NCBI GenBank assembly: GCA_044892505.1
Contig: CM097883.1
Location: forward strand, 228,904,001-228,968,000
Length of the DNA: 64,000 nucleotides
Direction of reading: 5' to 3'
Source: Schmidtea nova
Lineage: Eukaryota
Positions 3,531 to 31,620 of this stretch are shown here, in pieces. The number at the start of each line of letters is the position of its first letter. The stretch's first letter is position 1. A program made the position numbers and the translations under genes. The notes below the pieces were generated by a model that saw only the letters and a program-made list of their open reading frames with translations, did not search any database and was not told where the DNA came from.

Positions 3531-4113
3531 TCCAGCCAATGTATACATTTACTAGCCAATGCATACATTCACTTCCCATTTCAGTCAAAGCGTTCGCTCA
3601 CTATAGGAATGAACACTTTAACTAGGGAATGCATGCATTAACTAGATAATGTATAAAGTTACTAACCCACTGCAGTCAAAGCGTTAATTGATGAATTTCA
3701 AAGTAAAGTTTTTAAAATTAAATTTTGAAAAATGAAACAGATTAAAGAAGTAACTCAGAAAACACATTAAAATAGATAAACATTTTGTTTACTAAAAAAG
3801 TTTAAACAATACACTATGCAACGTAAAAATTTAAATAACACATAAATAAATATACATTCTATATAAAAGAAAATAAAAATTTAAAACATAAAAATACAAA
3901 AAAATCTAACATAGAAAGAAAAAAACTTGAAACACAAAATATACAAATAAATATAAATAAGAAAAACACTTTGACTAGAGGCAGTCCGTGAATGCATACA
4001 TCCACTAGCAAATGCATTCATTTCGATTATAATGAATACTTTAACTACGGATCTCAGCTAATGTATGCATTGGCTAGTAAATGTACACATTTACTAAATG
4101 AATGCTTTGACTG

Positions 4114-4115
<2 letters not shown>
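3531..4115. mobile_element. non-autonomous TIR element with subterminal degenerate repeats
   Basis: tgcagtcaaagc (3671-3682) and gctttgactgca (4104-4115) are inverted. Short repeats of the aatgtatacatttactag type recur. The element abuts (TA)n on the right and an N-gap on the left. Confidence 0.45.

Positions 4116-4117
<2 letters not shown>

Positions 4118-4189
<72 letters not shown>
4118..4189. repeat. (TA)n microsatellite
   Basis: Directly visible. Confidence 0.95.
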
Positions 4190-4196
<7 letters not shown>

Positions 4197-4253
4197 AACG
4201 ACATATTTTATTGCCTAATTTATTTTATGATTAACGATATTCGAGTACGTTGT

Positions 4254-5083
4254 TGTAAGCGCCGTCATTGTTATGGACGGTGCCTTTGCGGTCACCGTGG
4301 ACTCCCCCTTTTTGTTGGTGTCTGTAAATTTTTTATTATTATTATGATTATTTAGAATTAAATTAATTTAAAAAATTAAATTCAAAATAAAATATCTAAG
4401 GATATAACAAAATAAAAAAATCGATCACAAATTAAAGAGCTAAGAGACAATTAGAAAACAAAAAAACGATCAAAAAGAACCTTGGAAATTGGTAAAAACA
4501 AAAACCAGAAAATCTGAAGACTAAAATAGAATATAGGAAATCGAAAAGAAACAACAATAAAAGAAACAATCTCAATTTGGCCCAATACAATCTCAATCAG
4601 AATTACCATAGGGATTATAAATTAGTTCTCGAATCTTTGGAACATATCTACGACTGTTACCCAGATTTTAGAAACTTAAAATTGAAATACCTAAAAAAAT
4701 AAAGAATCCACAAACTCTATTTCCCAACTCTATTCCTCAAATCAAAAAAATTAATTTAGTTGATCTATCAGGAAAAAAATACTCCAAACCTGAAAACGAA
4801 CAGAAACGCATTCAAATCCACCTGATCACTCCGAAACTCTATAATCCCCCTACAGTAACTTTTGTAAAATTGCATATTTGACATTGGTGATAATAGTTGT
4901 GTTTAGCGTTAATAATTAATTTATTTCAATATTGGTTGTCTTATTTTATTGTATACACTCTAGCACTACAAAGCATACACCCCGAGTGTCGGTACACAGT
5001 TAACGCCGGACTCTCTCGGGCTCTTACATTCTTCTAGAGTCACAAAACAGAATATAACCTTAAACACACATACGTAACATAAA
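4254..5083 (+). repeat. LTR-like repeat, family B (copy 1)
   Basis: Starts TGTAAGCGCCGTCATT and contains gcactaca..caccccgagtgtc...ctctctcggg. Both motifs are shared with the PBS-adjacent LTR at 16586-17453 (-). Ends at an N-gap. Confidence 0.6.
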
Positions 5084-5859
5084 NNNNNNNNNNNNNNNNN
5101 NNNNNNNNNNNNNNNNNNNNNNNNNNNNNNNNNNNNNNNNNNNNNNNNNNNNNNNNNNNNNNNNNNNNNNNNNNNNNNNNNNNNNNNNNNNNNNNNNNNN
5201 NNNNNNNNNNNNNNNNNNNNNNNNNNNNTCGTTGAATATTTATATATTTTTTTTAGATTTCAATAAATATATTAAATAATTAAGCCTTTCCAGCTCACAA
5301 TTCCCAAGCGAAACACAACAATCTTCTAGGTTCATGTCCCCTAATATTGAATGAAATGGTAATCTGGTTTTGTTTATATTTACAAGTTTTTATTGGCTAT
5401 ACAATTTACGAATATAACTGGCCAAAGTTAAAATCGGATATTAATTCTCAATCATGTCAATGTTTCCCTCGTCATTATAATATTTCACCAGTCATATGTT
5501 TAGCATATAAAATAAATGGATTGTTAAATTTGGTTTCTGTCTTTATTACCTACATTTGTCTTGTTATCCATTTAAACAAAAACCGATTTCTAATGAATAT
5601 CATATTTGAAACAAACATTTTATAAGATCTAGTATTTTATACTTTATTTTTGACTCTTACTATCTCATCACACATAGGTAAATCATATTTTTCTATTAAT
5701 TTTAGATATAGCTCAAATATACATTCTTCACCTGGTGCATCCGTTACATCTGCATAATATATTATTTCGCTTTTTGACGGTACATCAACTAATTGACTCA
5801 GTAAAACTTCTTCTACCCCTCAATAACCTCTCCAGTTTGAGCTTTTATCAATTTTCAGG

Positions 5860-6170
5860 TATTTAAATCAAGTGAAATTCCTTTTAACTGCTCCATAACG
5901 TCCATACCAATAAGGGCTTCTTCTCATTACTGTTACTCAGTGAATAATCTCCTGATCTCCAATCTTCAATTTTGCGTTAACTTTTCCTATAATATTTAGC
6001 AGATTATGCGACATTGATTTGATACGCTTATTTGTCGGCCTCATCTCTTTTCTTTCTCGACACGTTAATAATTCCTCTGACACTATAGTATGACTTGAAC
6101 CTGAATCTAATAAAGCTTGCACTCTTCGATCATTAAACAAAACATCGATCCGAGGTTGTTTTCCTCCCAC
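5860..6170 (-). pseudogene. retroviral-type aspartic protease (start of pol)
   Basis: PRIDVLFNDRRVQALLDSGSSHTIVS contains the D-S-G catalytic motif. After a stop and a frameshift comes LIGMDVM, the conserved C-terminal ILG.D motif. Confidence 0.85.
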
Positions 6171-6559
6171 CTTCATTGTCATAAATGCATAACTGCATGG
6201 TAATCCAAGCATATTTTTGCGTTCGATTTCCGCACTCGTTGGTTCAATTTTCTGTGATTCAATTCGAATCTCATCTAATGGTTTCATTTCTTTTAATTTT
6301 TCGTTTGGATATACAGGTGCTGTTGGTACAAATGTTGGAGTATACCATCGGGTTAACGTATGAATTCCGCCTAATTTTGGCATTGGTTCGAGCAAGAACC
6401 TAGTTTCTGTTTCTGTTTTATTTTTCAATATCCCTCTACGAAAATATTTCAAAATGGTATTACCTCCGTCATTGTTATTGTTATGACTATCAATATCTTC
6501 CGATTGACATAATGATTCCTCACTTTTTTGATCCTTTCTCAATTGTGCTCTTACATTTG

Positions 6560-8476
6560 CCATTTCTTTGTATTGATGATTTATTATGAAAAATCTGGCC
6601 AAAAATGGAATACAACCGATAATTATTTTCCATGACCATCCGGAAATAGCGTATATTCTGTGTGCTGACAACACTTGTGATACTATCACTTTCATTGTTA
6701 CTGCAATTACGTAGATTCCAATTAAACCTGCACAAGCTTGCCATAAGAACATAAATTTACCCCAAATCTTTTCCATTGTTTTATATGTGACTCTTTTAAA
6801 ATGATCGGGCGTTAACAAATATTCGTAATTAACTTTTCCTTATCCGTTGGGTAATATTGTATCAACCATTTCTGAAATTACCCTTTCCTTTTTTGATGGA
6901 AATAGCAAGTTTCTTTGAGCCTCTTGGATGTCTTCGCTCGCATACAACCCCATTTGTGCCATTTTATTCAATGACGTAAAATTTACCAAATATTCTAAAT
7001 TTGTTAGCTCTAATTTATCAGGAGTTTTAACTCCTCTGTAGTCAGGTAACGCAATCCATGAATCCGGCGTTAAGCGATATAACGGAGCAAGTAATCGATT
7101 ACATTGTAATATTTTTGGTTTAGCCTGTACTTCGAGCAATATTCGAGTGATTGGTTCCATAAATCGTAACTTACCACCAACACTTAAGGGTAATTCATTC
7201 GTACATTGTTCATATTTCGCAATTTTTACAGCAACTTCCTTACATTTGTAGCTGTACAAAGCTTCTCCAAAAATTCTCGCGAACACGCCACTTTCCGATA
7301 TCAACATTGGTGCTACCAAATTTGGGTTTGTGACTGCCATAACCATCCGATTTCGAAGAATCTCTTTATTTAATTTACAATCATTTAGGATCATTTCCCT
7401 ATATACATTCTCCATGACGTCCTGACTAAAATGGAATAAATAATCAATTTTATTATTAAAAAGTGCGTTAATTTAATGTCGCCTGTAAAAATTTTAGTTT
7501 TTGCGTCTTCAACTATTCCCTTTGAAATATAAACACCTTTATAATTTGTTGCATACACCACTCTTCCACATTTATTAGTAGGTTCCTTTTTTATGAAACG
7601 AATGCCGTCCGTTGGCGATGCTGACATCAATACTGCACTTGTTTGCCTGGTCATTACCGGAATCGATTTAATTGCCTCTTTCGGTTTATAATTCACGGCA
7701 AAACTATCAGGTCTTTCTTTGAATTGTTCTCCAATTATTTCTTTAAAATTCATTGTCTTTAAATGAGCCAAATTACATTTATTTACTTTAACATCATAAA
7801 CTATAATTGATTCGCCCATTTGACAATTTGTCTGTTTCATGTTGCAAAATGGACGTGTTTACAATTTACCTGTATCATCATCAAATGCTCCTGCGAACTC
7901 TCTCAATTCTGTAAGGTACTCCTCTAGTACTACCGTTTTATCCACAATTGTACCATCCATTTTATACGGTTCACCTTCGCAATCACCATTTGCTTTCATG
8001 GTTCCTTTCACAACTACTGTCTCTCTCGTTCTATGATTCAGTTTGGCTTTTAATCGAATTTCCGAACTTATTTTTGATTCTCCGGTTTGAAATGCTGTTA
8101 AACAATTTTCTGGAAAAATTTCAACGGGTCTAGTTATTGCTCTCACTTTTATCAATGACATGTGGCTCCATTTTCCACAATAAAACACAAACGTTGTATG
8201 TTTGACAATATACTCTCTAACTTTAGTTCGTCGTAAGTCTGACTCTTGATACACTTGGTATTTTACATCATTTTCAATTTGTAATTTACTCGGATAGGCA
8301 TCTGGGCATTCTGACATATCTATTACTGAGTAAATCGTTCCCATTTCGGTTTGGGAGCAATCATATGCAACCAATGACGTCGTCTGTGTAATAACTGTAC
8401 ACAAGATAATCATTGTAAACATCAACCATGGGAATATTCCAATTCTCTTTGTTTTCGAACTGACCTTATCACACAA
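6560..8476 (-). pseudogene. chuvirus/Jingchuvirales-like envelope (fusion) glycoprotein
   Basis: Hydrophobic signal WLMFTMIILCTVITQTTS is followed by AYDC..S..D...C, YCGKWSH, GDCEG, CG.V..TNY, C.L....L.N...A..P, GE..Y..KC..V.V, C..ELP, FM.P.TRIL, GLY...D and LFP..K. C-terminal hydrophobic segments are WGKFMFLWQACAGLIGIYVI and GWSWKIIIG. This order and spacing match the chuviral G consensus as I recall it. About 620 aa. Confidence 0.8.
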
Positions 8477-8491
8477 TTTTCTTGTCTCTTC

Positions 8492-8722
8492 CTAATTTTC
8501 TTTTATATCTAGTGGTGGACACAATATCTCCCAACCACCCTTTTCTTTTATCCAATTTATTAAATATTCATTTAGCATCCTGGCTGCCGTATCTATTAAA
8601 TCATCCAACTCTTTCGACTTTACAAACGCATGAGTTCTTATCTCTAAAATCGCATATTTCAAACTCGTCAATACTACTAAACTTTTATTAAATATAACAA
8701 ATTTGATTTTAACAAAACACAA
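8492..8722 (-). pseudogene. Bcl-2 family domain (BH2 region and preceding helices)
   Basis: LDDLIDTAARMLNEYLINWIKEKGGWE aligns with the Bcl-2 BH2 region (..EYLNRHLHTWIQDNGGWD). FNKSLVVL is a weak BH1-position match. A frameshifted BH3-like IIRKA(G)DE lies near 8810-8850. Confidence 0.7.
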
Positions 8723-9014
8723 ATGTTTATAACAGAAAATCTATTCTACATGGAATAGTCCATAAGTTGTTTACACAACTTTTTCTGTGGATTTTATCTG
8801 AATCTTTCTTCGGATATCTTCATCCGGCTTTGCGAATTATCTTAGACTTGAAATTTAGGTCATCGGCCGGTATCTCGCAGAGTCTCTCTATCTACACTCT
8901 AACTCTCCTCAAAATGATTTATATAATTGCACAAACTAGTTTATTAATTTACAAAAGTAATTGAGTTTTTATATACAAAGTTTTATTTTAATTACAAAAA
9001 TTTATTTACATTAA

Positions 9015-10466
9015 TTACGCAAGGTTTGGAATAAAACCTCTAGTATGATGGTACCAGATTTTGGCTGAATATGCAATATTGCTTATAGCACATTCTTTCA
9101 ACAGACCTTTTACTTTGTTCTCTGGGACACCCATTTTAACTAAAAGATCAGAGGTTTTTATGTCAACTGATCCTAAAGAGCCTATTATGCATGTTAATAG
9201 TTCAACTTTGTAATCAGGCTTAACCTTTTGAATGTCTAATTTTAATTGATTATATTTATTTAAATTTAATTTATCAATATGTTCATAGTTAGATACAGAG
9301 TCGATTGGACACTTCATATCAATTAGAAGGATAGTCTTTTTCTCTGTATTTGTGATTATCAAATCAACACGTAAAGTAGAGTTTGGAACAAGAGAGCACG
9401 CGTGATTAACAACTACAATTAAAGCTGGATTTTTGAGCTCTTTACAGATATTTTCAAGACAGGAATTGTGACGACTAGTAGCAAGTGTCTGATTAATTTT
9501 ACAGGTTTGAAAGACATGTAACATTGTCTCGTCTTCTAATTTACAACGACGACAAAGACGTTCCTCGCCAGTTTTAAACGGTTTGGCAAATGTTGAAAGT
9601 GTATTTGTCCGAGCACGATGGATAAATTTCCATTCAAACTCAGTCAAATCACTACGGAAAATTAATTTGTTGACTAATGGGCACAGCTTTATTGCAGATA
9701 TCAGTAAGTTGCTGTTATTACTTTGTTCCCATTTTTCCAAGTAAGAATCTTGAATTGCAGAATGAAGAATCTTAGATACTGCTTTTCTTAAAGTTGGTAA
9801 CAAGATTCTGGTACCAGTGAGAGATGTAGTAAAACGAATCGCAGGTTCACCATTAACAGTTTCAAAAAGTATTTTGATATTGTGAACTCTGCTAAAGTAC
9901 GCGATTGATGTTCGTAGGCGATAGTATCTTGTTTTTCTGCTATTATGACCAGGCTTGCTTTCTTTTCCATTAATCCACTGCAAACTCTGAGAAAGAGTTG
10001 GGTTCTTTACTCCAAGTCTTGGACCTGTCACAAATAACAGTAAATCAGTGTTTATCCTTTTTGAATAACCACAGGTCGACGTTAATAAACGAAAAAAGTA
10101 CACAATTGTTTGCGTGTGATATTCATCTAAAAGATCAATGCATCCAGCTCCTCCATGTTCAACAGAATTATAGAAGTAACTGATCTCAGAGTGATTTGGA
10201 AGATTCAGTATCCTTCGCAACTGACTTATCAATAAGCTGGTATTATTGACATTAATCTTTGGATTTTTATATGGATCAGTAAGAGAGCTGGTTTTGATTT
10301 GGGACGCCCAGATATTGATAAAAGTCATCGTTGGTGATTTTCTTGATATATTTGTTATTGACATGAATTCCGGTAATGGTTTCTGCTTTTGGGTATTAGA
10401 TATAAGCACACTTTTCTGGACGATATTCGAATCCAATTTCCTTGGCAGTATTAACAGACACGTCAA
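9015..10466 (-). CDS. non-LTR retrotransposon C-terminal part: thumb, CCHC zinc finger, restriction-like endonuclease
   Basis: CRRCKLEDETMLHVFQTC (CCHC), RHN, RVDLII...LLIDMKCP (PD..D/ExK-like), K..KY..L. Confidence 0.9.
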   Translation of the reverse strand: MTCLLILPRKLDSNIVQKSVLISNTQKQKPLPEFMSITNISRKSPTMTFINIWASQIKTSSLTDPYKNPKINVNNTSLLISQLRRILNLPNHSEISYFYNSVEHGGAGCIDLLDEYHTQTIVYFFRLLTSTCGYSKRINTDLLLFVTGPRLGVKNPTLSQSLQWINGKESKPGHNSRKTRYYRLRTSIAYFSRVHNIKILFETVNGEPAIRFTTSLTGTRILLPTLRKAVSKILHSAIQDSYLEKWEQSNNSNLLISAIKLCPLVNKLIFRSDLTEFEWKFIHRARTNTLSTFAKPFKTGEERLCRRCKLEDETMLHVFQTCKINQTLATSRHNSCLENICKELKNPALIVVVNHACSLVPNSTLRVDLIITNTEKKTILLIDMKCPIDSVSNYEHIDKLNLNKYNQLKLDIQKVKPDYKVELLTCIIGSLGSVDIKTSDLLVKMGVPENKVKGLLKECAISNIAYSAKIWYHHTRGFIPNLA

Positions 10467-12843
10467 TTAAATTTTGTAGATCAACAGTATTTGTGGCAAC
10501 AAGAGCAATGTCATCAGCATATGCCAATACTTGTACAGAAGATGTACCAATCATGAATGGATTAATGTTAGATGAAGTGACAGCATTCAGTACAGGGTTT
10601 ATGGCAATTGCAAAGAGGATCATTGATTTTGGACAACCTTGCTTGACTCCTTGTTTAATTTCAATGTTTGGAGACTGGAGTTTATTACAGCAGTAAAATG
10701 AACTTGTTCCAGTATGCAAAAGTTTGATTATATCAACAAAGTCATGTGGAACACTTCCAAAGGCATCCTTTATATCCAGCCAAGCAATAGAAACTGGTGA
10801 TGATTTGAGAGATTTGGTGTATTCATCAATCGCAGAAAGCACTGAATTATGTTCAATGCAACCTTCATATTCTGAACCACCTTTCTGGCCAATATGCAAC
10901 ATGAAGTTATCTTTTGTCCAGGTGCCAAGACATTTTGCAAGAATAGAAGCAAAGACTTTATAGATTACTGAAAGAAGAGCAATTGGACGCCATGAGGAGA
11001 CTTTATGATACTGTCCATTTTTATCAGGCTTAGGAATTAAAATTGTTTTGAATGATTTCCAGCTAGTTGGAATCATCTTTGTTTTGATAATTTTATTATA
11101 GAGAAATGATAAAAGTTTTCCCTCAGGATCAAGTAAAGCAAGGTCTTTATAGCATATATTATCGAGTCCTGGTGAAGTATTATCAGCTTTCTGAAGGATA
11201 GATAAGACATCTTTAGGCGTAATTTTATCTAGATTTAATGTTATTTTAGAGATTTTACTAAATTTATGAATATTCTCCCAATTATTAATTAAAGGATCAG
11301 GTAGACTGAATGAGTCGATTATATCCTGAAAGCTAGGTTCCTCAGACACGCTGTCATCATTTAATATTCTATATACTGTCCCTTTCATATTACTCATGAA
11401 TTCAGTAGAATTTTTAAATTTATTTACTTTATTAAATTTTGTCCCTAAATATGGTGTAGGGATTTTATGCTTAATTTGATTTTGAAGTCGTGGAATATTA
11501 TCGATTATGGTGTTGATAATCTCGTCTAAATTGGAATTTGACAATTTAATTAAAAGTCTATTTACCTTTTCCTTACGCTGAAGTAAATTTAATTTTGAGG
11601 CCCTAACTGCTTTTAATTTGATGCGTCTCTCATCTTTGACATTATCGATTTTGTTAATTATTGGAACTAAAGATTCGATAACATTACCAATTTCATGTAA
11701 CTTTATATTTGTCAAGGGAATATCCAGCGTAAAGTTTCGAATAAAGGCACAGATTAGTAGTTTACTGAAAAGCCCAGACCCCTTTATGTCATGAGGACAT
11801 GTAACATTAATCATTGCACGTCCAACGCTTTCTCTCAACTCATTGATTTTAAGTCGTATCCTATTGCAGTAGCGTTCTGTAATCGGATTTATTTCAAGAG
11901 TTACTGGACTTAAAATGTAGTGTTGATCTGCTTCATAATCAATTACCATAAGTAAATCATGAACTGTTGGAGGGGAAATTATTGTAAAAATTACGTCTGC
12001 TTTCATCATAGACTCAATATTCAAAAAGTCCTTCAAATATTGAGTGCAATCATCAAAGATTGCAATGCATAACATTTTGTTAAACAGGATATATTTGTCA
12101 GATAATTTTAGATTAGTAAAATATTCATCTATGATGTTACCAGTTATTTTACCATTGATTAGACTGAGGCCAGGAGAAATTTCGCTGCACGCTTTGCATT
12201 TAATTTTACTAAGCACAACAAACACTTTATCATGATCGGCAATTCTCTGAAAAACTAATCTTTCAACTAGCACAATGAACATTGATGCAAAGTATTTATT
12301 ATCATAAGAGAAGAATGTTGTATGCGAAATTTCATGATTAGCCTCAAATTCAATTCTTCGATTAAGAAAAAATTGATTGAGATAATCAGTAATTTTTCCG
12401 CCAATTTCCCTTAGCCTCTCATCTATATTTCGATAATTAAAATCAAAAATATAGCTTTTGTTTAATTTAGTAGAATAGATAAAAAGGCACCAGTCATTGA
12501 ATTTAGGGATAATACTGATGACATGTTCAATTCCTTTAAATTGTTTGAAAGTTACGTTGTCTTTTATATAGTTGTCATTTTGCGCAATAAGATTATTTGT
12601 TAATTCCACACTCAGAACTGCTATTTGAGTATTAGTCTCATAATATTTCGTAATTAAGGATGATATGCATGGATTTTCGTTCATTAAGATTTTGGCAACT
12701 TTTACAGAGTTATTTATTGCTTTCTTTTTAGCAATTGCTTTTTTGATATTAATTGCTGTTACATCCATTGGCCGATTAGCTCCCCCTAACAATTTCGGCG
12801 TCATCTGCTTTTTGGTCTTCTCTAATTTCTTTGATGAACCCAT
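10396..12843 (-). CDS. two degenerate Ulp1-like domains plus non-LTR reverse transcriptase
   Basis: SPGLDNI, WK...ILIPK, WRPIALLSVIYKVF, QKG, WLDIKDAFGSVPH, GVKQGCP.S..LF and LAYADDI are all present. Confidence 0.92.
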   Translation of the reverse strand: MGSSKKLEKTKKQMTPKLLGGANRPMDVTAINIKKAIAKKKAINNSVKVAKILMNENPCISSLITKYYETNTQIAVLSVELTNNLIAQNDNYIKDNVTFKQFKGIEHVISIIPKFNDWCLFIYSTKLNKSYIFDFNYRNIDERLREIGGKITDYLNQFFLNRRIEFEANHEISHTTFFSYDNKYFASMFIVLVERLVFQRIADHDKVFVVLSKIKCKACSEISPGLSLINGKITGNIIDEYFTNLKLSDKYILFNKMLCIAIFDDCTQYLKDFLNIESMMKADVIFTIISPPTVHDLLMVIDYEADQHYILSPVTLEINPITERYCNRIRLKINELRESVGRAMINVTCPHDIKGSGLFSKLLICAFIRNFTLDIPLTNIKLHEIGNVIESLVPIINKIDNVKDERRIKLKAVRASKLNLLQRKEKVNRLLIKLSNSNLDEIINTIIDNIPRLQNQIKHKIPTPYLGTKFNKVNKFKNSTEFMSNMKGTVYRILNDDSVSEEPSFQDIIDSFSLPDPLINNWENIHKFSKISKITLNLDKITPKDVLSILQKADNTSPGLDNICYKDLALLDPEGKLLSFLYNKIIKTKMIPTSWKSFKTILIPKPDKNGQYHKVSSWRPIALLSVIYKVFASILAKCLGTWTKDNFMLHIGQKGGSEYEGCIEHNSVLSAIDEYTKSLKSSPVSIAWLDIKDAFGSVPHDFVDIIKLLHTGTSSFYCCNKLQSPNIEIKQGVKQGCPKSMILFAIAINPVLNAVTSSNINPFMIGTSSVQVLAYADDIALVATNTVDLQNLIDVSVNTAKEIGFEYRPEKCAYI

Positions 12844-13390
12844 CTGGAAAGTAGTTCCACTCTCTGCTAATAATCACTGCATAAGCGCAAGTGAAAGGCC
12901 CACAGTCGAAGTTGTTGTCTTGGTATTTAAGATAGTTGTGGGGATTTGATAATATTCTCGCGTTTAAGTTGAAGTGCATATTGAGTGCAATGTTCAATTT
13001 TCGAGCCATTTGTTTATTGATCAGCTTGTTGCGAATATTAAAAATTGGATCAATGAAGTAGGAAGACAGAGATTTTCTACAATAGACAAAAAGGATCCAA
13101 TGTGAGTTGTTGATGTTGATGGGACAGAAGATAACTTCGGCTCTTGTAAGTGATGGTGGTATTGGAACAATCTCTTCTTGAATGTTTGAACAGAGAATGC
13201 TCACTAGATAACATTTGATATGTGCATGGATTGGATTTTCAATGTGGTTCTCCAGATACCAGTCAATATCATCATCGGCAAACCACATTTCAGGATCGCG
13301 ATCTTTATGCAATAAACTATTAATAATTATTGTGCTCTCTGCATCAGTCTCATTTGGAGAAACGACTGAGACTTGAGCTGATGCAGGCAC
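12776..13390 (-). CDS. Ulp1/SENP-like cysteine protease (peptidase C48)
   Basis: WFADDDIDWY, IFCPININNSHWILF (His), YFIDP (Asp), YQDNNFDCGPF (oxyanion Gln and catalytic Cys). Confidence 0.88.
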   Translation of the reverse strand: MPASAQVSVVSPNETDAESTIIINSLLHKDRDPEMWFADDDIDWYLENHIENPIHAHIKCYLVSILCSNIQEEIVPIPPSLTRAEVIFCPININNSHWILFVYCRKSLSSYFIDPIFNIRNKLINKQMARKLNIALNMHFNLNARILSNPHNYLKYQDNNFDCGPFTCAYAVIISREWNYFPDGFIKEIREDQKADDAEIVRGS

Positions 13391-13396
13391 ACATCC

Positions 13397-15524
13397 TCAT
13401 TTAGCAATTGAGGTTTGTTTTTTTAAAGCTGTTGTTTTTGATTTTGATGCAGTTTTTTTGGTTATTTTCTGAGTTTCATTTACGCAGTCAGTGTTGGATT
13501 CTAAACTGGTAATGGCATTTAGTAAGCAGTTTCCACAGACATTAACATTTACTCCTTCTTTAATAACTAGGCATTTTTCCAGTGTGTTTCCACATTTAAT
13601 GCACTTGATATCGTCGTTTATTATTATGACTTCTTGCGTATTGACGATTTCAACAGGTTCTTCAATGTTGTCAATATTTTCTTCTATTTTGTCTTCAATA
13701 TTAACTTTATTAACAATTTGCGTCAGTTCTTTGACGATATTCGAAATTTCATTTGCCATTTCCGACGTGCAATGTTTTTTGCAGTTTTCAAAGAGACGAA
13801 ACTTTTGATTTTGGCTTCTTAATCTTTTAAAGTCTCTCAACATAAAATAGATAAATCTCTTTGATTTTGATCCATGCATATCATCGGAAACCTTGATATT
13901 ATTTAAAGTTTCCATTAATTTATTTACAATTTTACCGTGTTCGATTTCATTCGGATATTTTATGTCAACAATATCAAGAAAGATGTTTAGAGAAGATATC
14001 GTTTCAGGAGAAATTAAGTTGTGAATCTTATTAATTTCACCAGATATCTTCCATTGTTTGAGTTTAAGGAGCTTTTCCTGGCAACTTACAAAATAATATG
14101 ACAATTTTGGGATTTTTTCAACAATATTTGCACCCCAACATTCAAAGTCATCTATTGGAAGTAACGATATATCGTTTAGTGAACATGTCGATGTTATCAA
14201 GCTGCAGTTTCTTATGTAGTTTCTAACATAGTCAGCATATGTTTGATTTTGTAAAAATTCAAGAGACCCTGTTAGTCCTAAATAATTAAGATAAAAAACA
14301 ATTTCAACAGTTTTAGAATGACAGTTGTTTTTTAACAAAAGCAATTTTAAATTGTCATCATTGTTGGACATTGCCACAAGATCAAATAGTCCAAGATTGA
14401 ACATAATATCAGGTGCAGAACTTATTTCAGTTTTAGTTTCCTTCGATTGGTAAAATTTCCCATCCTGATAGAAGATGTTGTTTGGAAATTTACTATTTTT
14501 AACAATAGAAGATGATTTTGATACTGAATTCTCAACAAAGCAAGCTTCTTTGATAGAAGGAAACGTTGAATATAGTTTACTAGTCTGAGATCTCGAAAGT
14601 TCACTAACATTATTCATCAAACAGTCAATATTTTCTGTAGATTTAATATCTGGATTTGTCAGATCTAGCAGAACAAAATCACCGTTTTCGTATTTTATTT
14701 TAGACCTTATCAAGTAATTAGGCAGTTGTTGGCTATTTATCAATTCAGTTAATATTTTATTGATTTTATTTCCCATCTGCTTCTCATCTTTTATTGATAC
14801 AGTTTCAGCTAAATCTGCAGATAAATTAAAAAGAAACTTTTTAATTGACATAGGAGCAGAAGTATAGACTGAAGAAGGAAATATTTTAATTATATTATCA
14901 TCACTTAAAGTTATTCTTTTAGCCGATACTTCAGGTTTATAAGATTTCAATTTATTTCGATTTTCATTATTATTTGATACAGAATTACTTTCAATATTCA
15001 GAGCCACACATAAATTTGAATTTCTGTAAAAAAAATATCCAAATTCATGGATATTTATGGGGTTATTTCTCAATTCACTTGTTAATAAAAAGTTGTTTAT
15101 TTTATTTAATTTTTCTCTAGATTCTTTAAGTTTAACTAGAGTAATAATTTCAGGGAAAGCTTTGAAAAGTCGCTGCCGTTCCCGTCTTGTAATTATACGG
15201 ACAAACTTTTTAAAAGTATATGAATTTTTAGTATTAGTTATTTGTTTGTCTATAATATTTTGAACTTTCACAGATTTCTGGTTGCCTGTGACAGAAATCT
15301 TCAAATTTTGTATTAGGGTAATTTTAGCTTTAGAATTTTGTGATTTCTCTTCAGAATTTATTTCAGGATTTTCTAATTTAGATATCTTGTCGTAACGTAA
15401 ATAATTATTTGATATTAGTTTATTATCTAAATTAATTAAGTTATTTACATTATCTTTATTTAAATTCAAAATATCGCAATCATTTTTATTTACATTAGAT
15501 TTAATATTACTATTAATATTATTA

Positions 15525-15598
<74 letters not shown>

Positions 15599-15610
15599 TC
15601 CATATGACAT
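13397..15610 (-). CDS. 737-aa N-terminal part of the NeSL ORF; unknown function, ends in CxxC..CxxC
   Basis: Long open frame in the same frame as the Ulp1 ORF (TGA GGA TGT GTG). CIKC...CGNC lies near the C-terminus. It starts within the (AAT)n tract. Confidence 0.65.
15517..15598. repeat. (AAT)n microsatellite encoding poly-Asn
   Basis: Directly visible. Confidence 0.95.
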
Positions 15611-16404
15611 TTAATTTGTCTGTTTTCGACTATGATTTCGTCGAATTTGCCGATTACGGTGTTTAATAATTTGTTTATGTTGTCGTTAGTTTCGTTGTTT
15701 TTGTTGTATACGGGGTTATTGTAGTGCGGTTTGTTTTTGTTGTTGTTTTGGGTGCTGCATATAGTCGGATAGATTTCCTCGTTGATCTTATCCGCTATGT
15801 TGGCAAGCGTTTCCACGTCAGCGTTGTTGCTGGCTGCCAGAATTCTCCTGATTTCTGGTGGCATTGCTCTCTTGAAAAATTCTTTCACCAGTTCGTTGGA
15901 GCCTGAATTTGTGATGTTGGGTTGGAGGTATTCTAATTTTTGCTTAAGTTGTCGGAGAAAATCTGTTGGTTTATTGTCGCCTAATTGCGTGTTATTGAGG
16001 CATGACTCCAGCATTTGTCTCCTGTTTATTTTGTTTTTATTCGTAAGGATGTTACACAGTTTGTTAAAGGGGTCCTCATCCTTAGAGATTTCTTCGATCT
16101 GATCCGCTATTTCATTTAGTTTGTTGCTGGGGAGTGCGGCTATAATGTTTGAGCATAGGGTTTTTGTGGATTTTATTCCTGACAATGTTAATGTTAATTT
16201 AGCAAATTCCAGCCATTTTTGTGGAGTGCCGTTTTCATCGGTGAAGTAGTTTGGTAAGTTGGGTTTTGGGTTAATTACCGAATTTATGGTATGTGTGTTT
16301 TCGGGGTTGTAATAGTAGTTGTTATTTTGGTGTTGGGATTGTGCATTTTCGCTGTCTATGGGTGCTTGGGTAATGTTTGTTTGGTTTAGTTGGTTGGTTG
16401 CCAT
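15605..16404 (-). CDS. Ty3/gypsy Gag (CsRn1/Kabuki-like), C-terminally truncated
   Basis: LGDNKPTDFLRQL, LVKEFFKRAMPPEIRRILA and VETLANIADKI match this gag type. It lies downstream of an LTR and PBS on the same strand. The poly-Ile tail in the ORF track is a frame artefact of (AAT)n. Confidence 0.8.
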
Positions 16405-16572
16405 CGTTTTTGTTTATGTGTTGCTTGTTGATGCAAAAAATCGAGTTTGTTTCAAGGATATGGCTTACTGTGTTCAGCCAAAAGATCTCACCTTCCTTTA
16501 TAGTTCTATACTAACTATTCTAAAAGGAAAAGGTGATTTGAGAAAAATTTCGTCGAGTGTGTGTATGTGTTG

Positions 16573-16585
16573 ACTTCTGACACCA
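16573..16585 (-). promoter_or_regulatory. primer-binding site, tRNA-Leu(CAA)-type
   Basis: TGGTGTCAGAAGT immediately follows the LTR and is complementary to a tRNA 3' end ...ACTTCTGACACCA. Confidence 0.8.
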
Positions 16586-17453
16586 GTTATTATAAGTCTT
16601 AGTGCGGTTGTTGTTTGTGTTTTTAATTTGTTGTGTATGAAGGTGGAGAAAAATTGTAGATCCCGAGAGAGTCAGACGTTAACAATGTGTCGACACTCGG
16701 GGTGTGTGCTGTGTAGTGCGGTTACTAATATGATGTAATAACAATTAAATATAAAAAGTATATAAATTACCAAAAAATGAACAGAACTATTTTGATTACA
16801 AATATTTATTAATAACCAAATAATAAAAAACCACGAAAGGTTACTTGTACAGTTTTTCTCCTTTAGCTTCTTCACAATTTAGCAGCCGTCGACGAGGGAA
16901 ATTGTAAATTGGAAGAATATATGAACTTTGATAAATATATGAACTTTGAATATATGAACTTGAATATATGATCGACGAGGGAGATTGTAAATTGGAAGAA
17001 TATATGAACTTTGATAAATATATGAACTTTGAATATATGAACTTGAATATATGATCGACGAGGGAGATTGTAAATTGGAAGAATATATGAACTTTGATAA
17101 ATATATGAACTTTGAATATATGAACTTGAATATATGATCGACGAGGGAGATTGTAAATTGGAAGAATATATGAACTTTGATAAATAATTCTTTTAATTCT
17201 TCCTTAGTTTTCTTTTATTTCTTACAGCTAATTATCTCTTGTGATCTAATAAAATTCTAAATCAATTTTTAATTAATTTTTTTCAATTCTGAATTCAGCT
17301 TACTATAGTTTCCTATAGTAAGCTATTTGAATTCAGAATTTAAATTTCTTAATTAAATTATTTTATTATTTTATTTTTTTACATTTATAAAAAATAAAAG
17401 GGGGGTTCCTGGTGTCCGCAAGGGCACCGTCCATAGTAATGACGGCGCTTACA
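16586..17453 (-). repeat. 5' LTR, family B (copy 2)
   Basis: Begins TGTAAGCGCC at 17453, ends ...ATAAC directly before the PBS, and shares motifs with 4254-5083. Confidence 0.7.
16890..17185. repeat. 83-bp tandem repeat, about 3.5 copies, with nested aatatatgaactt(t)g sub-repeats
   Basis: Units start at 16890, 16973, 17056 and 17139 and are nearly identical. Confidence 0.95.
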
Positions 17454-17471
17454 AACAAAAATCTAACATTC

Positions 17472-17554
<83 letters not shown>

Positions 17555-17789
17555 TCCAAGATAATTAAAAAAGAAAAATATCTGTTTTAATAATATATAT
17601 TTTTGAACGAAAGCGTGNNNNNNNNNNNNNNNNNNNNNNNNNNNNNNNNNNNNNNNNNNNNNNNNNNNNNNNNNNNNNNNNNNNNNNNNNNNNNNNNNNN
17701 NNNNNNNNNNNNNNNNNNNNNNNNNNNNNNNNNNNNNNNNNNNNNNNNNNNNNNNNNNNNNNNNNNNNNNNNNNNNNNNNNNNNNNNNN

Positions 17790-18250
17790 TGTTGGGACAC
17801 TCGGGGTGTATGCATATATGCTTTTATGTGTGGTGCTTGTATATTTGATTATGTTATTATAATGACAAATATCGAACAAATTAGTTAACGAAACGAGTTA
17901 TACAAAAACGTTTATTAAAGTTAACACTATGAAACTAAAAAGATATTTACTCACTGAAACGCTTCTTTGGAATATTTAGAAATGTTCTTTATATATTTTA
18001 GAGTTGATTATTAAATTTTTCTGATTTTTGTCTACTCTTTAGTAATTGCGGTTGTTACAGATTTTCGGATTTTCTCAGATAATTGCTAGTAGGTTCCAAG
18101 ATAAATATATTTTAAAATATTCTTTCGTATTTGTAATTTTTGAGGTGATAATTTTGCAACATGTCCCCAAATAGTATGTGTCTACCATTGTGAACCGAGA
18201 GAGGAAATAAAAATAAATTATTTATTTAATTATTTTGATCCACTAATAAA
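17790..18250 (-). repeat. LTR family B, partial copy 3
   Basis: gacactcggggtgtatgc is the same LTR motif. It starts at the edge of an N-gap; the right boundary is approximate. Confidence 0.45.
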
Positions 18251-21710: not shown

Positions 21711-23247
21711 TTAAAGACTCGCTGACAAATTGATAAGAGTGTACAAAGTAGTACTCAGCTGATTTCTATCACAAAGACCCCTATGCCTATTAAAAGACTC
21801 ATTGTTCCTAAAACCGTTTACACACCTAGGACACCACTGGCTACAAATCCTAACAGGAGTGATTGAACTATTCCTACAATTAAGGAATCTATTTAAATCT
21901 GTGATTCCCACATAATGATAAGTATTCTTATTTTCAATTAATAATAAATTTATAGGTATTCCTCCTACTACCTTACTTCGATAAATTATATCAATAAAAG
22001 GATGCTTCAAAACTGCATCTTCATCAGAAATGTCTATCAAGGCCTTTTCGTCATAACTAAGGACATTAATACTAAACCGGGATTTTGATTTTCAAATTTA
22101 TTTATATTTGCCAGTTTCATCGGCATATCATTGGGGTCAAATTTAAGTTGTGTAAGATCGTAGGAAGTAGGACGATTTCTATGTTGTCTATTGACACTTT
22201 CATATTTAATAATCGATAGGAAACTATACAAAAAACAAAAATTGTCATTATTAATTACATTTATAAGACAGCTTAAATTTTTAATGATTTAGGGGTTTTA
22301 ATAAAACTATTGCCACTTAACCGACTTATTTCTGAAAATTTAGTGAGAACAAAACTTATGTACTCTATTTTACTGATAGTCCAATTACTACCTTTTTCAT
22401 TTATTTGAACTATTTTCTCATTTAAATTTGAAATACCTTCGTCAATGAAGGTATCACTCCAAACTCTGGCGGAATTTGAGATGACGAAAGATTGTAACTC
22501 ATCATCTTTCTCAAATTCCACCTTAAGGCAAAATTGAATTTTACATGATTTTAATTTATTAACATAGAAATTTAATTTATTTAACAAAATGTCAAGCACT
22601 GAGACCGTTTTTAATTCTAAATTTGTAACATCTAGTTTTATTATAACATGGTTGTCTTTCAAGTCAGAATTAACTTCGACTAACCCATATCCAATTTGAT
22701 TATTATTTATATTATTATTTAATTGAGAATTTTCATCATCACTGATGATGATTATTTCTTCATCGTCACTGATGGTTATAGTATGAATATTACTACTACT
22801 ATTATTAATATTATTATTAATATCTTCATCATCACTGATGTCGATTATTTGTATTTTTGTAGGAAATGAATCCATATTTGTTGTGTTTTTTCTTTTATTG
22901 ATATTTTGTAAATTATTATTATTATTTGTATTATTATTATTGAGATTATTGTTGTTAATGTTGGCATTTTTATTAATATTATTGTTATTATTATTATTTT
23001 GATTAAAGTTATTATTATTATTATGATTAAAATTAATTTGGTTTTGATTTAAACTCTTAAAAAGTGATTTTTTTGAAGGCATATATTGAGTAAGATGGGA
23101 CCTATGTTTGTTAAAGAATTCTCTATATGATATCGTTTCTATAATTTTACATTTAGGACAGAGGTGGGTGACACCATTATATTTGTAGGAATAGTATTTT
23201 TCCATAATGTGATGGCAATCATTATGTAAAGTACTATTACAGTACAA
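21711..23247 (-). pseudogene. Maverick/Polinton protein-primed DNA polymerase B, N-terminal region
   Basis: GSNWTISKI...LSGNSFIKTPKSL, P.....INKFENQN, INLLLI....HYVGI.DLNRFL and C.RC...F...ESF.RH...C are typical of pPolB N-termini. The region is fragmented into three ORFs. Confidence 0.7.
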
Positions 23248-23359
23248 TGGATAATCTGTACCTTTAAAATAATGATAAAATAATTATAAAATAATTATAA
23301 AATAATTGAAAAATAAACATAAGTTTAACCTATTATTAAATTATTAACATTTTGGTTAC

Positions 23360-24019
23360 TTAAATATCCGTGCTTTCGTCCACAATCAATGTATGGAAGG
23401 CAGATTCACGGATTTCAGTCGTGATGGTCTCTTGTACAACCGCATTGATGCATTCCACGAATTCAAATGCATAATTTTTGCTTCTCCAGCTTTCTGGAAT
23501 GGAAACGTACTTCGCCATATGATCATGAATTTCTTGTGCCGAAAGCATTGAAGAATTCATCGAAATTGCTAGCAATACATTGTCTATTAATATTTTTACT
23601 TGCTCGCCTGTTCGTTGTCGATCATTAAGGTCAATTCGCAGCTGCCTTTCAACGATGGACTCATTCATCAGAGTTTTAATACCAGTTCCAGAATTCAATC
23701 TTTTTATTTTTGCCAACGAATCCAAATGAATCTGTTGGGTAAGATGTCTTTTCAAATAATCAATTTTCCAATGCTCCCAAAATTTACCCACAGCAAAATC
23801 GCTTTAAGATTTTGCTTCTGAGCATATTTTACATACCACACCCTCCTCCATAGAAAAGCTAAAAATGCTCCCCATTTCAACACATTTGGTTTCTTTCGAT
23901 TCAATAGTTTCCGTTTTAATTAATTCTTTCAGCCATGACAGTTTAAAAGTAGCGGCAGATCGTTTCCGTGGTGTTTTTAACGCAAATAGTTTATCTTCGT
24001 CCAATTTTCGTTTTGACAT
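23360..24019 (-). pseudogene. hAT transposase 5' fragment (zinc finger to first catalytic Asp)
   Basis: FKLSWL...CKIC...LKRH.....H followed by HTLIVDESTDI. The two ORFs are in frame across one TAA, and the sequence is truncated after DESTDI. Confidence 0.75.
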
Positions 24020-24787
24020 TATATTTTATGGGGATTAAAAAATACAAAATTAATATTTAATATTGGTCTATATATTTAAAACTATAAGATGTACACCGAT
24101 AAAAATGCGTATAATTGACTCCCGAGCCGACTAGATGCAACGAAATAACACTCATAATGGTGGTTTGTGCTTAGGCCAAACTCGTCCACTCCGCAATAGA
24201 TTCTGCCCAAGCCCACAACCTTTAAAATATATTTAAAATTGAATTATGGCATCTTAGATTTTAAACGCATTATTCAGCTACAGCATATATTGATTGTGAA
24301 GGGGGTCTGGGAATGATCTTCATGGCATATACAAGAAGACATCATCTGAGCAACAGTGGCATTACGGTCTTCGGGTCAAGCATATAAATATCATTATTGG
24401 ACTAAATGCACTGAACATTAACATTTCATGTGAATATTTAAGAGATGGTAGAGCTGCCGATGGTTGGCCGACACGGAATTGATGCTACCGAGCTACCTCT
24501 CTAGTTAAATAATGTTCTGCTTCCTGCTATGGGGGCAAGAGTGATCCCTGATACACAGAACGCATGTTTGTTAGACTTCCCGTGAGACTGCAACTTAACG
24601 AAAAGGATAATGGTGCACGCACTTGATCTATTTGAGATTATCGTAAACATTGTATTCTATACCGACTGTAGCGAAAATGTTGAAAACTAAGTAGATAATC
24701 GGTTTTCGCTGCTGGTGATCCATTTACATCGACAATTTCCGTGAGCTTTTTACTGGGAACAACTGCCCTGAAACACTTGAATTAAAT

Positions 24788-25036
24788 TTACTGCGCTGAA
24801 AATAATTTTGCTGCGCGGGGGTGTTGGAGGTGCTGCGCGCGCGCACGCGCGCAGCTTAGAGGGAACGTTGGTTCTGAATTGTGTGAAATTATATTCATTT
24901 TGGGAAAATTTTCGGTAATTAATTTTTTCGGAGGTGCGAAACTCGTTTTAGATGGAATTAATGTTTCACGATTCTTTTTAATAACTTTTCTTAGTTTTGA
25001 TAGCTTTGGATGTTTAGCTCGTGCTTTAAGTCTCAT
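24788..25036 (-). CDS. small basic ORF downstream of the Maverick ATPase
   Basis: Lys/Arg-rich 82 aa. It occupies the same position relative to the ATPase as the basic ORF at 59560-59770. Confidence 0.35.
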   Translation of the reverse strand: MRLKARAKHPKLSKLRKVIKKNRETLIPSKTSFAPPKKLITENFPKMNIISHNSEPTFPLSCARARAQHLQHPRAAKLFSAQ

Positions 25037-25056
25037 GATTAATTTCGAACACGAAT

Positions 25057-25336
25057 TTAACTTTGTTTATAAACCATTGCTCCTTCTTTGTTAAAAATAT
25101 CAGTTCTAAAACGTAATTCATCACTACATTGTTGAGTAAAATCGAGAAAAATATATCCATGTGGGATTTTAGTTGCATCTTGAAATGCATTGATCAAGAA
25201 ATTCCGATTATTAGGGTAAGCCTGTCTTGCAAGAAAATCAATAACTGTAGCATCTCTAGGATTTTTAAAAATAATTAGATATTGAACATTCAAATTTCGA
25301 GTTCGATGACTACCACCCTGATGAAATAAATTCTGA
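25057..25336 (-). pseudogene. Maverick/Polinton packaging ATPase, C-terminal part (5' part falls in an N-gap)
   Basis: QNLFHQG...NLNVQYLIIFKNPRD...LARQAYP...QDATKIPHGYIFLD. Confidence 0.8.
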
Positions 25337-28984: not shown

Positions 28985-31455
28985 CAAACAAGAGTTCACG
29001 TTGACTTTCAAAATTGCTCAAACCATGACACCTATTTTAGGAGCAGATTTCTTGGCCCACTTTGACATATTAGTAGACTGCAAAAGAAATCGACTGCTAA
29101 CTGATTAAAATAAATCAGAGGAAAGTGGCACCTCAATAGTCAACGTTATCGGATAGAATACTGTCAACATTCCCATAAGTGTGGAGAAAGCATTATTGAA
29201 TATATTTCCGAATTGCGTGGCAAGATCAACAACAATGAACGATATGAGGAAAGCAGAACATCACATTCCAACCATAGCAACAGCACCGATTACTTGTAAA
29301 GTCAGAGAACTGAATTCTGAAAGAAGGAAAGTGGCAGAAGAAGAGTTCAGGCAGCTAGAAAGAGACGGAGTAATTAGGCGATCAGACTTAGAGTGGCCTT
29401 CACCTTTACATATTGTAACAAAGAAAAACGGATCTATTCGACCATGCGGAGACTACCGAGCATTAAACAGACTCACAAATCAGATGCTTATCCAATGCCT
29501 TTAATATCAGACATATTACATAGATTTAGTGAGTGCAAAGTATTCTCAAAAATTTACCTAAAGAAGGCTTATCACCAGTTACGGGTAGCGGAAAAGGATA
29601 TCGGAAAAACAGCCGTGGCAACTCCGTTTGGATTATTAGAGTTTTTACGAATGTCGTTTGGTTAAAAGAATGCATCTCAGTCGTTCCAAAGTTACATAGA
29701 TAAAGTATTATGTGACTCATATTTTGCGGTTGCTTATGTGGATGATGTGATAATAGCTTCTCAGAATTATTCCGAACACGAGAGTCATATAATGAACATT
29801 TTAGAGAAATTGCATGATAACAAAATGCAAATTAACATGGAAAAATGTCAATTTTTTAAAAGTGAAATCAAAATTAGCACAGATTCAAACACTGGCATTC
29901 CCGGATACCAAAGCAGAAGTATTTTTGCCAACTGATGCGTCTGACCTAGCAATTGGAGCCGTGTTACATCAAACAATAGACGAATAAATTCGACCAATAG
30001 AATTCTTCTCAAGAAAATTGTCACCTACCCAGGTTCGATATTCAGAAGCCATAAAACACTTTTCCTACATGCTAGAAGGAAAAACATTTACAATATTTAC
30101 AGGCCCAAACCTTTAGTTCATGCGTTAGAGGTGAAGAAACCTTCTCCTCGTCAACAACGTCAAATTTCATTGTTATCCGAATTTAATCTTAATATTAAAT
30201 ATACCGCAGGCAAAGATAACGTAGTAGCAGATTGTCTATCAAGATCTTCGATAAATGCTATTCCATTCCAAGGAGATCTCAACAATAACCGAATCAGAGC
30301 AAAGCCTCCTGAGAAGGCAGATGTATAAAGGTTTAAGAAGGTCATTGAAGAAGATGAAATATTTTACGATATGTCAATATCTGTGATGGCTAGGCCAATT
30401 TTATCTAAAGAACTAAGGAAGGAAGTATTCCAAACAGTACATCAACATCATCTCCTGGAGTCAATCTAACTTGTCAGCTGGCAAAGGTCAGAGCATGTTG
30501 GCCTGGAATGAAGAAAAATATTCAAGAGTGGTGCCGCAGTTGCGTCGAGTGTCAATCAAATAAAATTTACAAGCGATTAAAGCCCCAAATACAGAATTTT
30601 CCCACAGGAAATAGATTTGAAGTTCTGCATGTGGATATTGTGGGACCACTACCACCATCGGAAGGATTCACTTATATATTAACCATGATGGAGAGGTGTT
30701 CTCGTTGGCCGGAAGCAGTTCCAGTTATGTCAATATCGGCAAAACCTATTGCAAAAGTCATAATAAACACGTGGTTTGCAAGGTATGGAAATCAAAATCA
30801 TATTATAACCGATCAAGGGACCCAATTTGAGAGTAATATTTTTAATAATTTAGTTAAGATTTTGGAGTAAAGCACATACATACAACTGCGTATCATCTGC
30901 AATCAAATGGACTGATTGAAAGATTTCATTGTTCTTTGAAGACGTCATTAAAATGCATGGCACAGAAGTGCAGATGGACAAAAACCTTACCAATGGTACT
31001 ACTCGGATAGAGAAACTCTCCACACGCACCAACCAACATATCACCGGTGCAAATGTTATTTGGTAGCGGTACCATGCTACCAGGAGATATATTCTCAGCT
31101 TCTGGTGAAATAGAGTGAGAGGCACTAGAAGAGGCTCGTCGAAATTACAATACACAGAATACCAATCCAAATCTAAGATATCCTAAAGCAGATAAAAGAA
31201 ACGTTCCGTGAAATTAGACATCGACGAAACTGGTATGGCTAGAAGCACCGGAAGTGCATCACTTGAAACCAAGATACAGTGGGCCGTATAAAGTCGTGTC
31301 AATACAAGAAAACACTGTAACAATAAGCAAAGACTCAAAAGAAGTTACAGTAAATATGCAAAGAGTAAAACCTGACATAATCTAAGAAGAAAGAAGCAAA
31401 AATTCATATGAAGTGATTGAAGAAGATGGCGGCTCCGCTTAAAACAAAGGGGTTA
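28985..31455 (+). mobile_element. decayed Ty3/gypsy pol (PR tail, RT, RNase H, integrase) with PPT
   Basis: ILGADFL, SPLHIVTKK...CGDYRALN, YHQ...TPFGL, YVDD, TDASDLAIGAVL, NVVADCLSR, HVDIVGPLP, TDQGTQFES and YSGPY, with many frameshifts and stops. PPT aaaacaaagggg lies before the LTR. Confidence 0.92.
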
Positions 31456-31620
31456 TGTAGTGTTTTAGTATTATATAATTAAATGATATTGTAGAAATAT
31501 ATTACAATTATATTTGTTTAAATAAAGAGATAAAGAGAAAAAGGAGAAATTAGAATTTGGAAAGAACCAAAGTTATTATATAAATAAATTTTTGAATATC
31601 TTGTATTCGAATTTATAACA
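31456..31620 (+). repeat. 165-bp 3' LTR (TGT...ACA)
   Basis: Follows the PPT, starts TGTAGTG and ends TATAACA. Confidence 0.85.

Follow-up and report, generated by a model that had tools for sequence, protein, structure and literature searches.

A Bcl-2-like domain in frame with Env in a probable Burro-type retrotransposon fragment of Schmidtea nova

Introduction

A stretch of 64,000 nucleotides from Schmidtea nova, referred to here as the window, carries a Bcl-2-like reading frame directly before a sequence for a viral-type fusion glycoprotein. Is the Bcl-2-like segment a component of a retroelement or a piece of a host gene lying beside one, and what might such a domain do in an intact element? 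Burro/GYPSM1 elements, found in Schmidtea mediterranea and other Dugesiidae, are gypsy-like LTR retrotransposons of giant size (PMC6431247, which cites Grohme et al. 2018 and Jurka 2007); in them a BCL2-like motif is followed in one ORF by an env matching mononegavirus fusion glycoproteins and then by a protease (PMC6431247). They also carry BIR, MATH/TRAF, and SUMO-like domains, and decayed fragments with stops and frameshifts are reported from Dugesia japonica (PMC6431247). The same source suggests that the BCL2-like domain meddles with apoptosis and calls for experiments; PMC11410931 mentions Burro once. An earlier note on this DNA pointed to reports of a Bcl-2-like ORF in Burro, and PMC6431247 confirms them. 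Because BCL2-env-PR is the published Burro order, the occurrence of Bcl-2 in a retroelement is already known.

Results

Reading frame and state of the copy

The sequence LNEYLINWIKEKGGWE lies at 8575-8528 within an open frame of 82 codons on the minus strand (8740-8495). The same frame is that of the glycoprotein and runs on for 210 codons past a TAG at 8494-8492 (Table 1). This is the arrangement claimed in the earlier note, a BH2-like sequence in the glycoprotein frame with one TAG between, and it was found as described; the 15-nt spacing given there fits no landmark, as GGWE and the stop are separated by 11 codons, and Env's hydrophobic signal segment begins 16 codons past the stop, at 8443. 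Four long relatives from the homolog search described below (P0003, P0004, P0005, and P0017) align by tblastn across the TAG in one frame, from the domain into env, indicating that the stop is a lesion. The distance from BH2 to the conserved YDC of Env is 62 residues in the window and 56-86 residues in ten relatives, and this matching spacing, together with the single-frame alignments, shows the Bcl-2-like domain to be part of the element. The segment is thus a retroelement component and not a host gene. Allowing for lesions, the Bcl-2-like domain, env, and protease lie in one frame, which is broken by stops at 8494-8492, at 7861-7859 and 6842-6840 (both in Env, which is also damaged by a frameshift near 7470), and at 5939-5937 (in the protease, which contains a further frameshift). 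With its stops, frameshifts, AT-rich interruption, NeSL-like insertion upstream, and no RT, the copy in the window is dead and makes no functional product. About 3.3 kb of Burro-like sequence survives, and the locus is, with high confidence, an internal piece of a Burro-type Ty3/gypsy LTR retrotransposon that has become a pseudogene.

Table 1. Features of the fragment and of the element adjoining it, in window coordinates
Feature	Position	Strand	Remarks
Post-protease segment, Burro dUTPase-like slot	5640..5819	-	Weak likeness, 22% in protease-anchored alignment to P0011
Retroviral-type aspartic protease (LLDSG)	5820..6164	-	In frame behind env; PF13975/PF13650 E about 9e-4
Env, Monjiviricetes-type (chuvirus-like, HSV-gB-type) fusion glycoprotein	6580..8374	-	PF24664
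Hydrophobic internal signal peptide of Env	8375..8443	-	Kyte-Doolittle peak 2.2; starts 29 residues after BH2
In-frame TAG between Bcl-2-like domain and env	8492..8494	-	Lesion of the window copy; relatives read through the linker in one ORF
Bcl-2-like helices 5-8 (end of BH1 region to BH2)	8528..8674	-	Near gap-free alignment to nine element-borne relatives
AT-rich stretch over expected BH1 site	8675..8748	-	GC 0.162 vs 0.33-0.40 on both sides
Decayed coding-like N-terminal part of domain	8749..8910	-	BH3-like string and helix-4-like block; tentative
NeSL/LIN-like non-LTR element (Ulp1 protease, RT, RLE-type tail)	8911..17474	-	Boundaries approximate

Env matches PF24664 (Monjiviricetes_fusion) in three pieces in order, with E values of 3.9e-26, 2.5e-38, and 1e-11 (profile positions 5-191, 311-508, and 519-627), and has hydrophobic segments at 6737-6681 and 6638-6582. 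In the window and in all ten Bcl-2-bearing relatives, BH2 is followed at a distance of 24-56 residues by a hydrophobic 15-mer (Kyte-Doolittle 1.5-2.8), and the segment ends 7-18 residues ahead of the YDC/FDC that is conserved where mature Env begins. Relatives without the Bcl-2-like domain also have a hydrophobic Env signal segment; cleavage of the signal peptide was judged solely from hydropathy. The protease aligns with that of P0014 (tblastn E 7e-11). Neither a five-relative profile nor Pfam matched a dUTPase-like domain at 5643-5819. The element fades out ahead of RT, near an N gap at 5084-5228, and no RT remains of the element were detected before this gap. Rfam returned nothing credible for positions 4000-18000 (four weak rows).

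Sequence and fold of the Bcl-2-like domain

The BH2 motif, WIKEKGGW, is located at 8554-8531 on the minus strand, and the pattern W[ILVM]xxxGGW has this single occurrence in the six frames of the 64-kb window. Pfam PF00452 gives a weak match to the window frame (E 0.0038, 18.2 bits, under the 31.4-bit cut-off), in which WIKEKGGW aligns to profile positions 71-100, and the motif also aligns to Bax and Bcl-2 PDB chains, the best PDB sequence match of the segment being catfish Bax (5w63, E 0.0099) over 25 residues around BH2. Taken singly, four of the 29 relatives scanned match PF00452 (E 7.7e-5 to 2.1e-3); with at most 23.6 bits, these too stay below the curated cut-off, which no sequence reached. 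In a frameshift-aware alignment firm homology is confined to 8674-8528, and the helix-5 block is equalled by one of 400 control windows. A profile of nine relatives, with the window left out, matches the window frame at E 3e-8, the next best of 642 six-frame pieces being at 0.015; since the relatives were found with the window as query, this match is a consistency check and not independent. The relatives' profile found no second Bcl-2-like piece elsewhere in the 64-kb window.

When a profile of five relatives and the window (A1) was compared with the PDB, the best match was Bcl-xL (E 2.8e-4, from helix 4/BH1 to BH2), and the best 60 of 121 rows are all members of the Bcl-2 family. The model of an intact relative, P0024, was predicted from a nine-row alignment, with a mean pLDDT of 53.8 and values of about 70-84 over residues 71-140. 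Residues 41-153 of this model match A179L best (Z 8.6, rmsd 3.1, 112 aligned), followed by KsBcl-2, GIV66, BHRF1, and Bcl-xL, and the Bcl-2 fold accounts for 19 of the top 20 and 26 of the 50 structural rows; for helical bundles, a Z of about 8 does not settle the matter. In Foldseek the top match of the model is likewise Bcl-xL (E 0.009), with no match at E 0.001 or better in any Foldseek search, and the predicted model of the window's own shortened piece reaches a best E of only 1.9. A viral fold library returned several vBcl-2 rows (best E 0.022) interspersed with unrelated rows. The first Atlas match of the window piece, a cluster with PF00452 in 12% of its members (0.88), is a lead only, and the Atlas search with P0024 gave no Bcl-2 lead. 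Each of these lines of evidence is modest, and together they agree on a Bcl-2-fold domain. The Bcl-2-like module that had been proposed for the env-pol frame is thus upheld, both by profile matches (PF00452, below its cut-off, and Bcl-xL) and fold matches and by in-frame fusion in ten relatives.

The N-terminal part of the domain

The GC content of the AT-rich stretch at 8675-8748, whose boundaries were set post hoc, lies below that of all 2480 74-nt windows of the env-PR region (minimum 0.176). The BH1 site is disrupted in the window copy, and the stretch is probably a secondary insertion over it. It begins near a GT and ends near an AG; read by hand as an intron it gave no convincing frame. 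An origin from the 3' tail of the neighbouring NeSL element was also rejected, the likeness being weak (23/1000 shuffles) and other windows scoring higher. Farther upstream, the frameshifted BH3-like IIRKA(G)DE of the earlier note is indeed present as a string at 8840-8819 (IIRKA at 8840-8826, a frame break, then DE at 8824-8819), but it gains no support from the relatives' profile, in which 51 of 60 control windows and, for the helix-2 block, 290 of 400 score as well, or from Pfam, which returned no Bcl-2 match for a read carried across the frame break with an X. A BH3-like pattern, written post hoc, occurs in 13 of 1500 random 140-nt windows and in none of 489 coding-strand windows. The helix-4-like LCKQLMDYSM, in the third frame at 8778-8749, is equalled by 44 of 400 controls. 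A BH1-like third-frame reading at 8790-8692 (no Pfam match; 44/400 as a block) was rejected as BH1 because BH2 would then follow at too great a distance. Among the seven relatives whose sequence extends over BH1, the Trp and Gly of NWGR are found in none and Lys or Arg occupies the Arg position in all (five Lys, two Arg); no common BH3 consensus exists among the relatives.

The upstream NeSL-like element

The element upstream matches PF02902 (E 1.4e-9), PF00078 (E 1.1e-24), and zf-RVT, and the combination of an Ulp1 protease, a non-LTR RT, and a zinc-knuckle/RLE-type end has been described for NeSL-related elements (PMC4640811). Its AT-rich 3' end (GC 13.5% at 8911-9014) truncates the Bcl-2-like region, and the skew reverses near 9000. 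The module had been placed at the front of the frame; intact elements have it inside Gag-...-Bcl2-Env-Pol, with a CCHC knuckle upstream in P0003, and it seems to come first in the window frame because another element has removed what lay ahead of it. Searches with the N-terminal regions of seven relatives gave no match in the window at E 0.1, nor did the window yield any gag, MATH, BIR, ankyrin, SUMO-like, RT, integrase, or LTR sequence of a Burro-like element.

The NeSL-like element is itself preceded by a gypsy-type gag-like ORF (DUF7041, E 3e-4; 15490-16560 for the ORF and 9015-15610 for the body, both on the minus strand), shortly before which lies TGGTGTCAGAAGT, presumably PBS-like. An (AAT)n run marks the junction between the gag-like frame and the Ulp1-RT-RLE frame, and these may be two nested elements or else a chimera in which the 5' end of an LTR element is joined to an R2-like body. 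An 83-nt tandem repeat (3.6 copies, 99% identical, 16889-17186) is located within the 5' leader of the NeSL-like element. Two related 5' leaders are present in opposite orientation, at 4250-4311/4960-5025 (+) and 17400-17450/16660-16725 (-), each starting at an (AT)n run and containing two short conserved self-complementary blocks about 700 nt apart with diverged sequence between them; these blocks, for which Rfam gave no match, look like structured RNA elements.

Relatives and history of the domain

The Bcl-2-plus-env read was searched against 1.84 billion representatives and gave 188 matches, of which the best 150 were used. Domains were scanned in 29 relatives that apparently have sequence before env, and 27 of 151 proteins have at least 80 residues before the env start. 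Ten of these 27 carry the Bcl-2-like segment, with leave-one-out scores of 20.5-68.9 bits as compared with at most 3.1 for the other 17; nine of the ten were first chosen by a BH2-like motif, and the tenth is the one new relative among four matches of a profile search. In all ten, the domain is in one ORF with env. The long relatives are polyproteins with a CCHC knuckle (upstream of the Bcl-2-like domain in P0003), env, protease, RT, RNase H, and integrase, and RT-RH-IN is carried by the env relatives P0011, P0014, P0025, and P0029. BH2 (W/Y-x6-W/L with GG, QG, or GS) and the helical pattern are kept across relatives that are 26-39% identical. The homolog searches returned no host Bcl-2 sequences, and word-seeded searches among longer proteins, with either the 82-aa frame (31 candidates) or the 293-aa read (1097 candidates) as query, yielded no homolog.

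The close env relatives P0006, P0008, and P0011 are without the domain, which is therefore dispensable for the lineage. Near env relatives that lack it have a low-complexity linker in its place; a shared GRP motif stands ahead of this slot in P0003 and in three Bcl-2-less rows of the careful tree. In a quick env tree of 36 rows the window falls in a 20-row clade of gag-env-pol polyproteins (100*), apart from Pao and from stand-alone chuvirus-like glycoproteins. In the careful tree of 14 rows, from which short relatives were left out, the window is sister to P0003 (92/96, not starred) and the Bcl-2-bearing P0005 is sister to the three Bcl-2-less rows (99/98*). Grouping the five Bcl-2-bearing rows of this tree together was rejected (p-AU 0.0165); the group had been fixed before any tree was made, and the test was run after the quick tree was seen. 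One gain with several losses, or recombination, would fit this history, and the domain may have been lost or exchanged repeatedly among gag-env-pol elements.

Two further features of the relatives were observed. P0004, P0006, P0008, and P0011 have two or three aspartic-protease-like domains per polyprotein, some behind the integrase or far from the first. The closest env relatives, P0001 and P0002 (66-68% identity), are joined to unrelated host domains (MRP-L47 and FAD oxidase); they are probably chimeric gene models and uninformative on the Bcl-2 slot.

Other elements in the window

Large nested inverted repeats (95-100% identity, arms of up to 1523 nt) surround gypsy integrase pieces at 31003-44647, with an IS1595/Merlin-type transposase at 40349-41347 (E 1e-23) among them; the repeats represent a foldback duplication or an assembly artefact. 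DNA polymerase-like and packaging-ATPase-like pieces at 21711-25300 and 53777-60018, with an integrase at 58486-59028 (rve, E 0.003), resemble Polinton/Maverick genes by eye.

Discussion

The segment in the window very probably belongs to Burro or a sister family, to which it is likened by the published domain order. Common to both are the BCL2-env-PR order in a single frame, the mononegavirus-like env (PF24664, E 4e-26 to 2.5e-38), and the AT-rich, repeat-filled sequence, as in planarians. Burro has a gag with CCHC knuckles and accessory domains (MATH, BIR, ankyrin, and SUMO-like), whereas this region of the window is replaced by the NeSL-like element, and P0003, the nearest env relative in the careful tree, has a CCHC knuckle; Burro continues from PR through a dUTPase-like domain to gypsy RT-RH-IN and exceeds 25-30 kb with its LTRs, whereas the fragment ends before RT. 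An intact element would encode one long polyprotein, Gag-(accessory domains)-Bcl2-like-Env-PR-RT-RH-IN. Ty3/gypsy errantiviruses with a GAG-ENV-POL order and an HSV/gB-type Env are known from Nematoda, Bryozoa, and Platyhelminthes (PMC13524379). Points in common are the placement of Env between gag and pol and an ectodomain flanked by a signal peptide/TM and a TM; in contrast, "Bcl" is absent from the main text of PMC13524379, and here only a subset of the relatives has the domain.

Compared with the vBcl-2 proteins of DNA viruses (ASFV A179L, KSHV KsBcl-2, iridovirus GIV66, EBV BHRF1, and poxvirus F1L, M11L, and DPV022), the element-borne domain has the fold, a likely origin by host capture, a C-terminal hydrophobic anchor, and tolerated degenerate BH motifs in common. 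The viral proteins are products of free-standing genes with assayed activity, whereas the domain in the window is part of a retroelement polyprotein known from sequence and models, and its anchor would be the Env signal peptide. With the cellular family (Bcl-xL, Bcl-2, and Bax) it shares a BH2 of the form WIxxxGGW, the helix 5-6 hairpin, and a hydrophobic tail 24-56 residues past BH2; it differs in that the BH1 NWGR is degenerate, BH3 is not conserved, and the Pfam score is below the cut-off.

Our best explanation as a whole combines the identity as a Burro-type fragment with a mechanism in intact relatives, and we consider it likely. For the mechanism itself the chances appear about even. In intact relatives, the domain would have been captured from a host Bcl-2-family mRNA, and the polyprotein would be threaded into the ER in the style of flaviviruses. 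The hydrophobic segment that follows BH2 by 24-56 residues would serve as the internal signal peptide of Env and, after cleavage by signal peptidase, would stay on the Bcl-2-like domain as a C-terminal membrane anchor, by analogy with the capsid anchors of flavivirus polyproteins. The anchored domain would then face the cytosol, which is the normal topology of Bcl-2 proteins, and its divergent groove could bind Bak/Bax-like effectors or a small range of host BH3 motifs, so that the cell producing the element's RT, integrase, and fusogen would die later. That the direction is pro-survival is an evenly balanced judgment. The Arg of BH1 makes the hallmark salt bridge to the BH3 Asp, and mouse Boo, with SWSQ at the NWGR position, binds no pro-apoptotic partner (PMC5691656). 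Deerpox DPV022 has no recognisable BH motifs, yet binds Bak, Bax, and Bim, and F1L is tethered through a C-terminal TM (PMC11209288). Searches of the open-licence literature turned up neither a functional study of Burro's Bcl-2 domain nor an earlier proposal of the anchor.

In the same element, the Bcl-2 fold could instead be a scaffold for a role other than BH3 binding, such as innate-immune or TRAF/ubiquitin signalling, or membrane shaping and particle assembly next to Env. Vaccinia A49 has the fold without the function (PMC4358236), and MATH/TRAF and SUMO-like domains are found in Burro (PMC6431247). The loss of the NWGR Trp and Gly in all seven relatives, the lack of a common BH3, and the presence of vaccinia A52 among the structural neighbours of P0024 (Z 6.0, rank 50) are consistent with such a role. 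However, pro-survival proteins that bind BH3 (A179L, KsBcl-2, GIV66, BHRF1, and Bcl-xL) head the structural and profile matches, and the relatives retain BH2 and the basic BH1 residue, which to our knowledge poxviral signalling proteins of this fold mostly do not keep; we regard the scaffold role as possible but rather unlikely.

A pro-death function, as a Bax/Bak-like effector or as a decoy of host pro-survival proteins that would aid particle release or change cell turnover, is quite improbable. Among single-sequence PDB matches to the window segment catfish Bax ranks first, and BOK, BAK, and BAX are among the structural neighbours of P0024, the two classes being poorly separated by sequence; yet the Bax match covers just the 25 residues around BH2, the profile favours Bcl-xL, the BH3 position is not conserved, and killing of the host cell would be costly for a germline-resident element. 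We give equally little credence to a captured piece that is functionless and kept merely as a spacer before the Env signal peptide. The absence of the domain from 17 of 27 relatives with upstream sequence, among them near env relatives with a low-complexity linker, would agree with this, but BH2 and the helical pattern persist at 26-39% identity, where drift would have erased both. A chance motif, or a host bcl-2 exon lying beside the element by chance, which the earlier note had considered and which the weak Pfam score and the short-intron-like GT and AG near the ends of 8675-8748 might suggest, is effectively refuted by the in-frame fusion in ten relatives, the single-frame alignments from domain into env, the matching BH2-to-YDC spacing, the lack of any other Bcl-2-like piece in the window, and the lack of a GT donor directly behind the GGW codon, the usual site of an intron in host bcl-2 genes.

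The locus itself is ordinary, a single dead piece among thousands of Burro-like copies. In the published accounts found, the Bcl-2-like domain of Burro has so far been named from motif searches; to this are added here a family of ten in-frame relatives, the fold, and a conserved non-canonical BH1. The proposed topology, in which the Env signal peptide would double as the tail anchor of a pro-survival domain, would explain why the domain lies exactly before Env. More speculatively, Burro-type elements might be enveloped reverse-transcribing viruses of flatworms that cut an anchored vBcl-2 with an NWGR-less groove from Gag-Env-Pol and so keep the producing cell alive, the module being exchangeable among lineages; we find this conceivable but lean against it. 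Because BURRO1 is highly abundant, active, and PIWI-repressed in planarians (PMC8532177), the question is testable in these animals. If the domain is active, a genome-resident retroelement would be steering host apoptosis, and, if true, this would be a functional vBcl-2 outside DNA viruses, in a regenerating animal that relies on apoptosis for its cell turnover.
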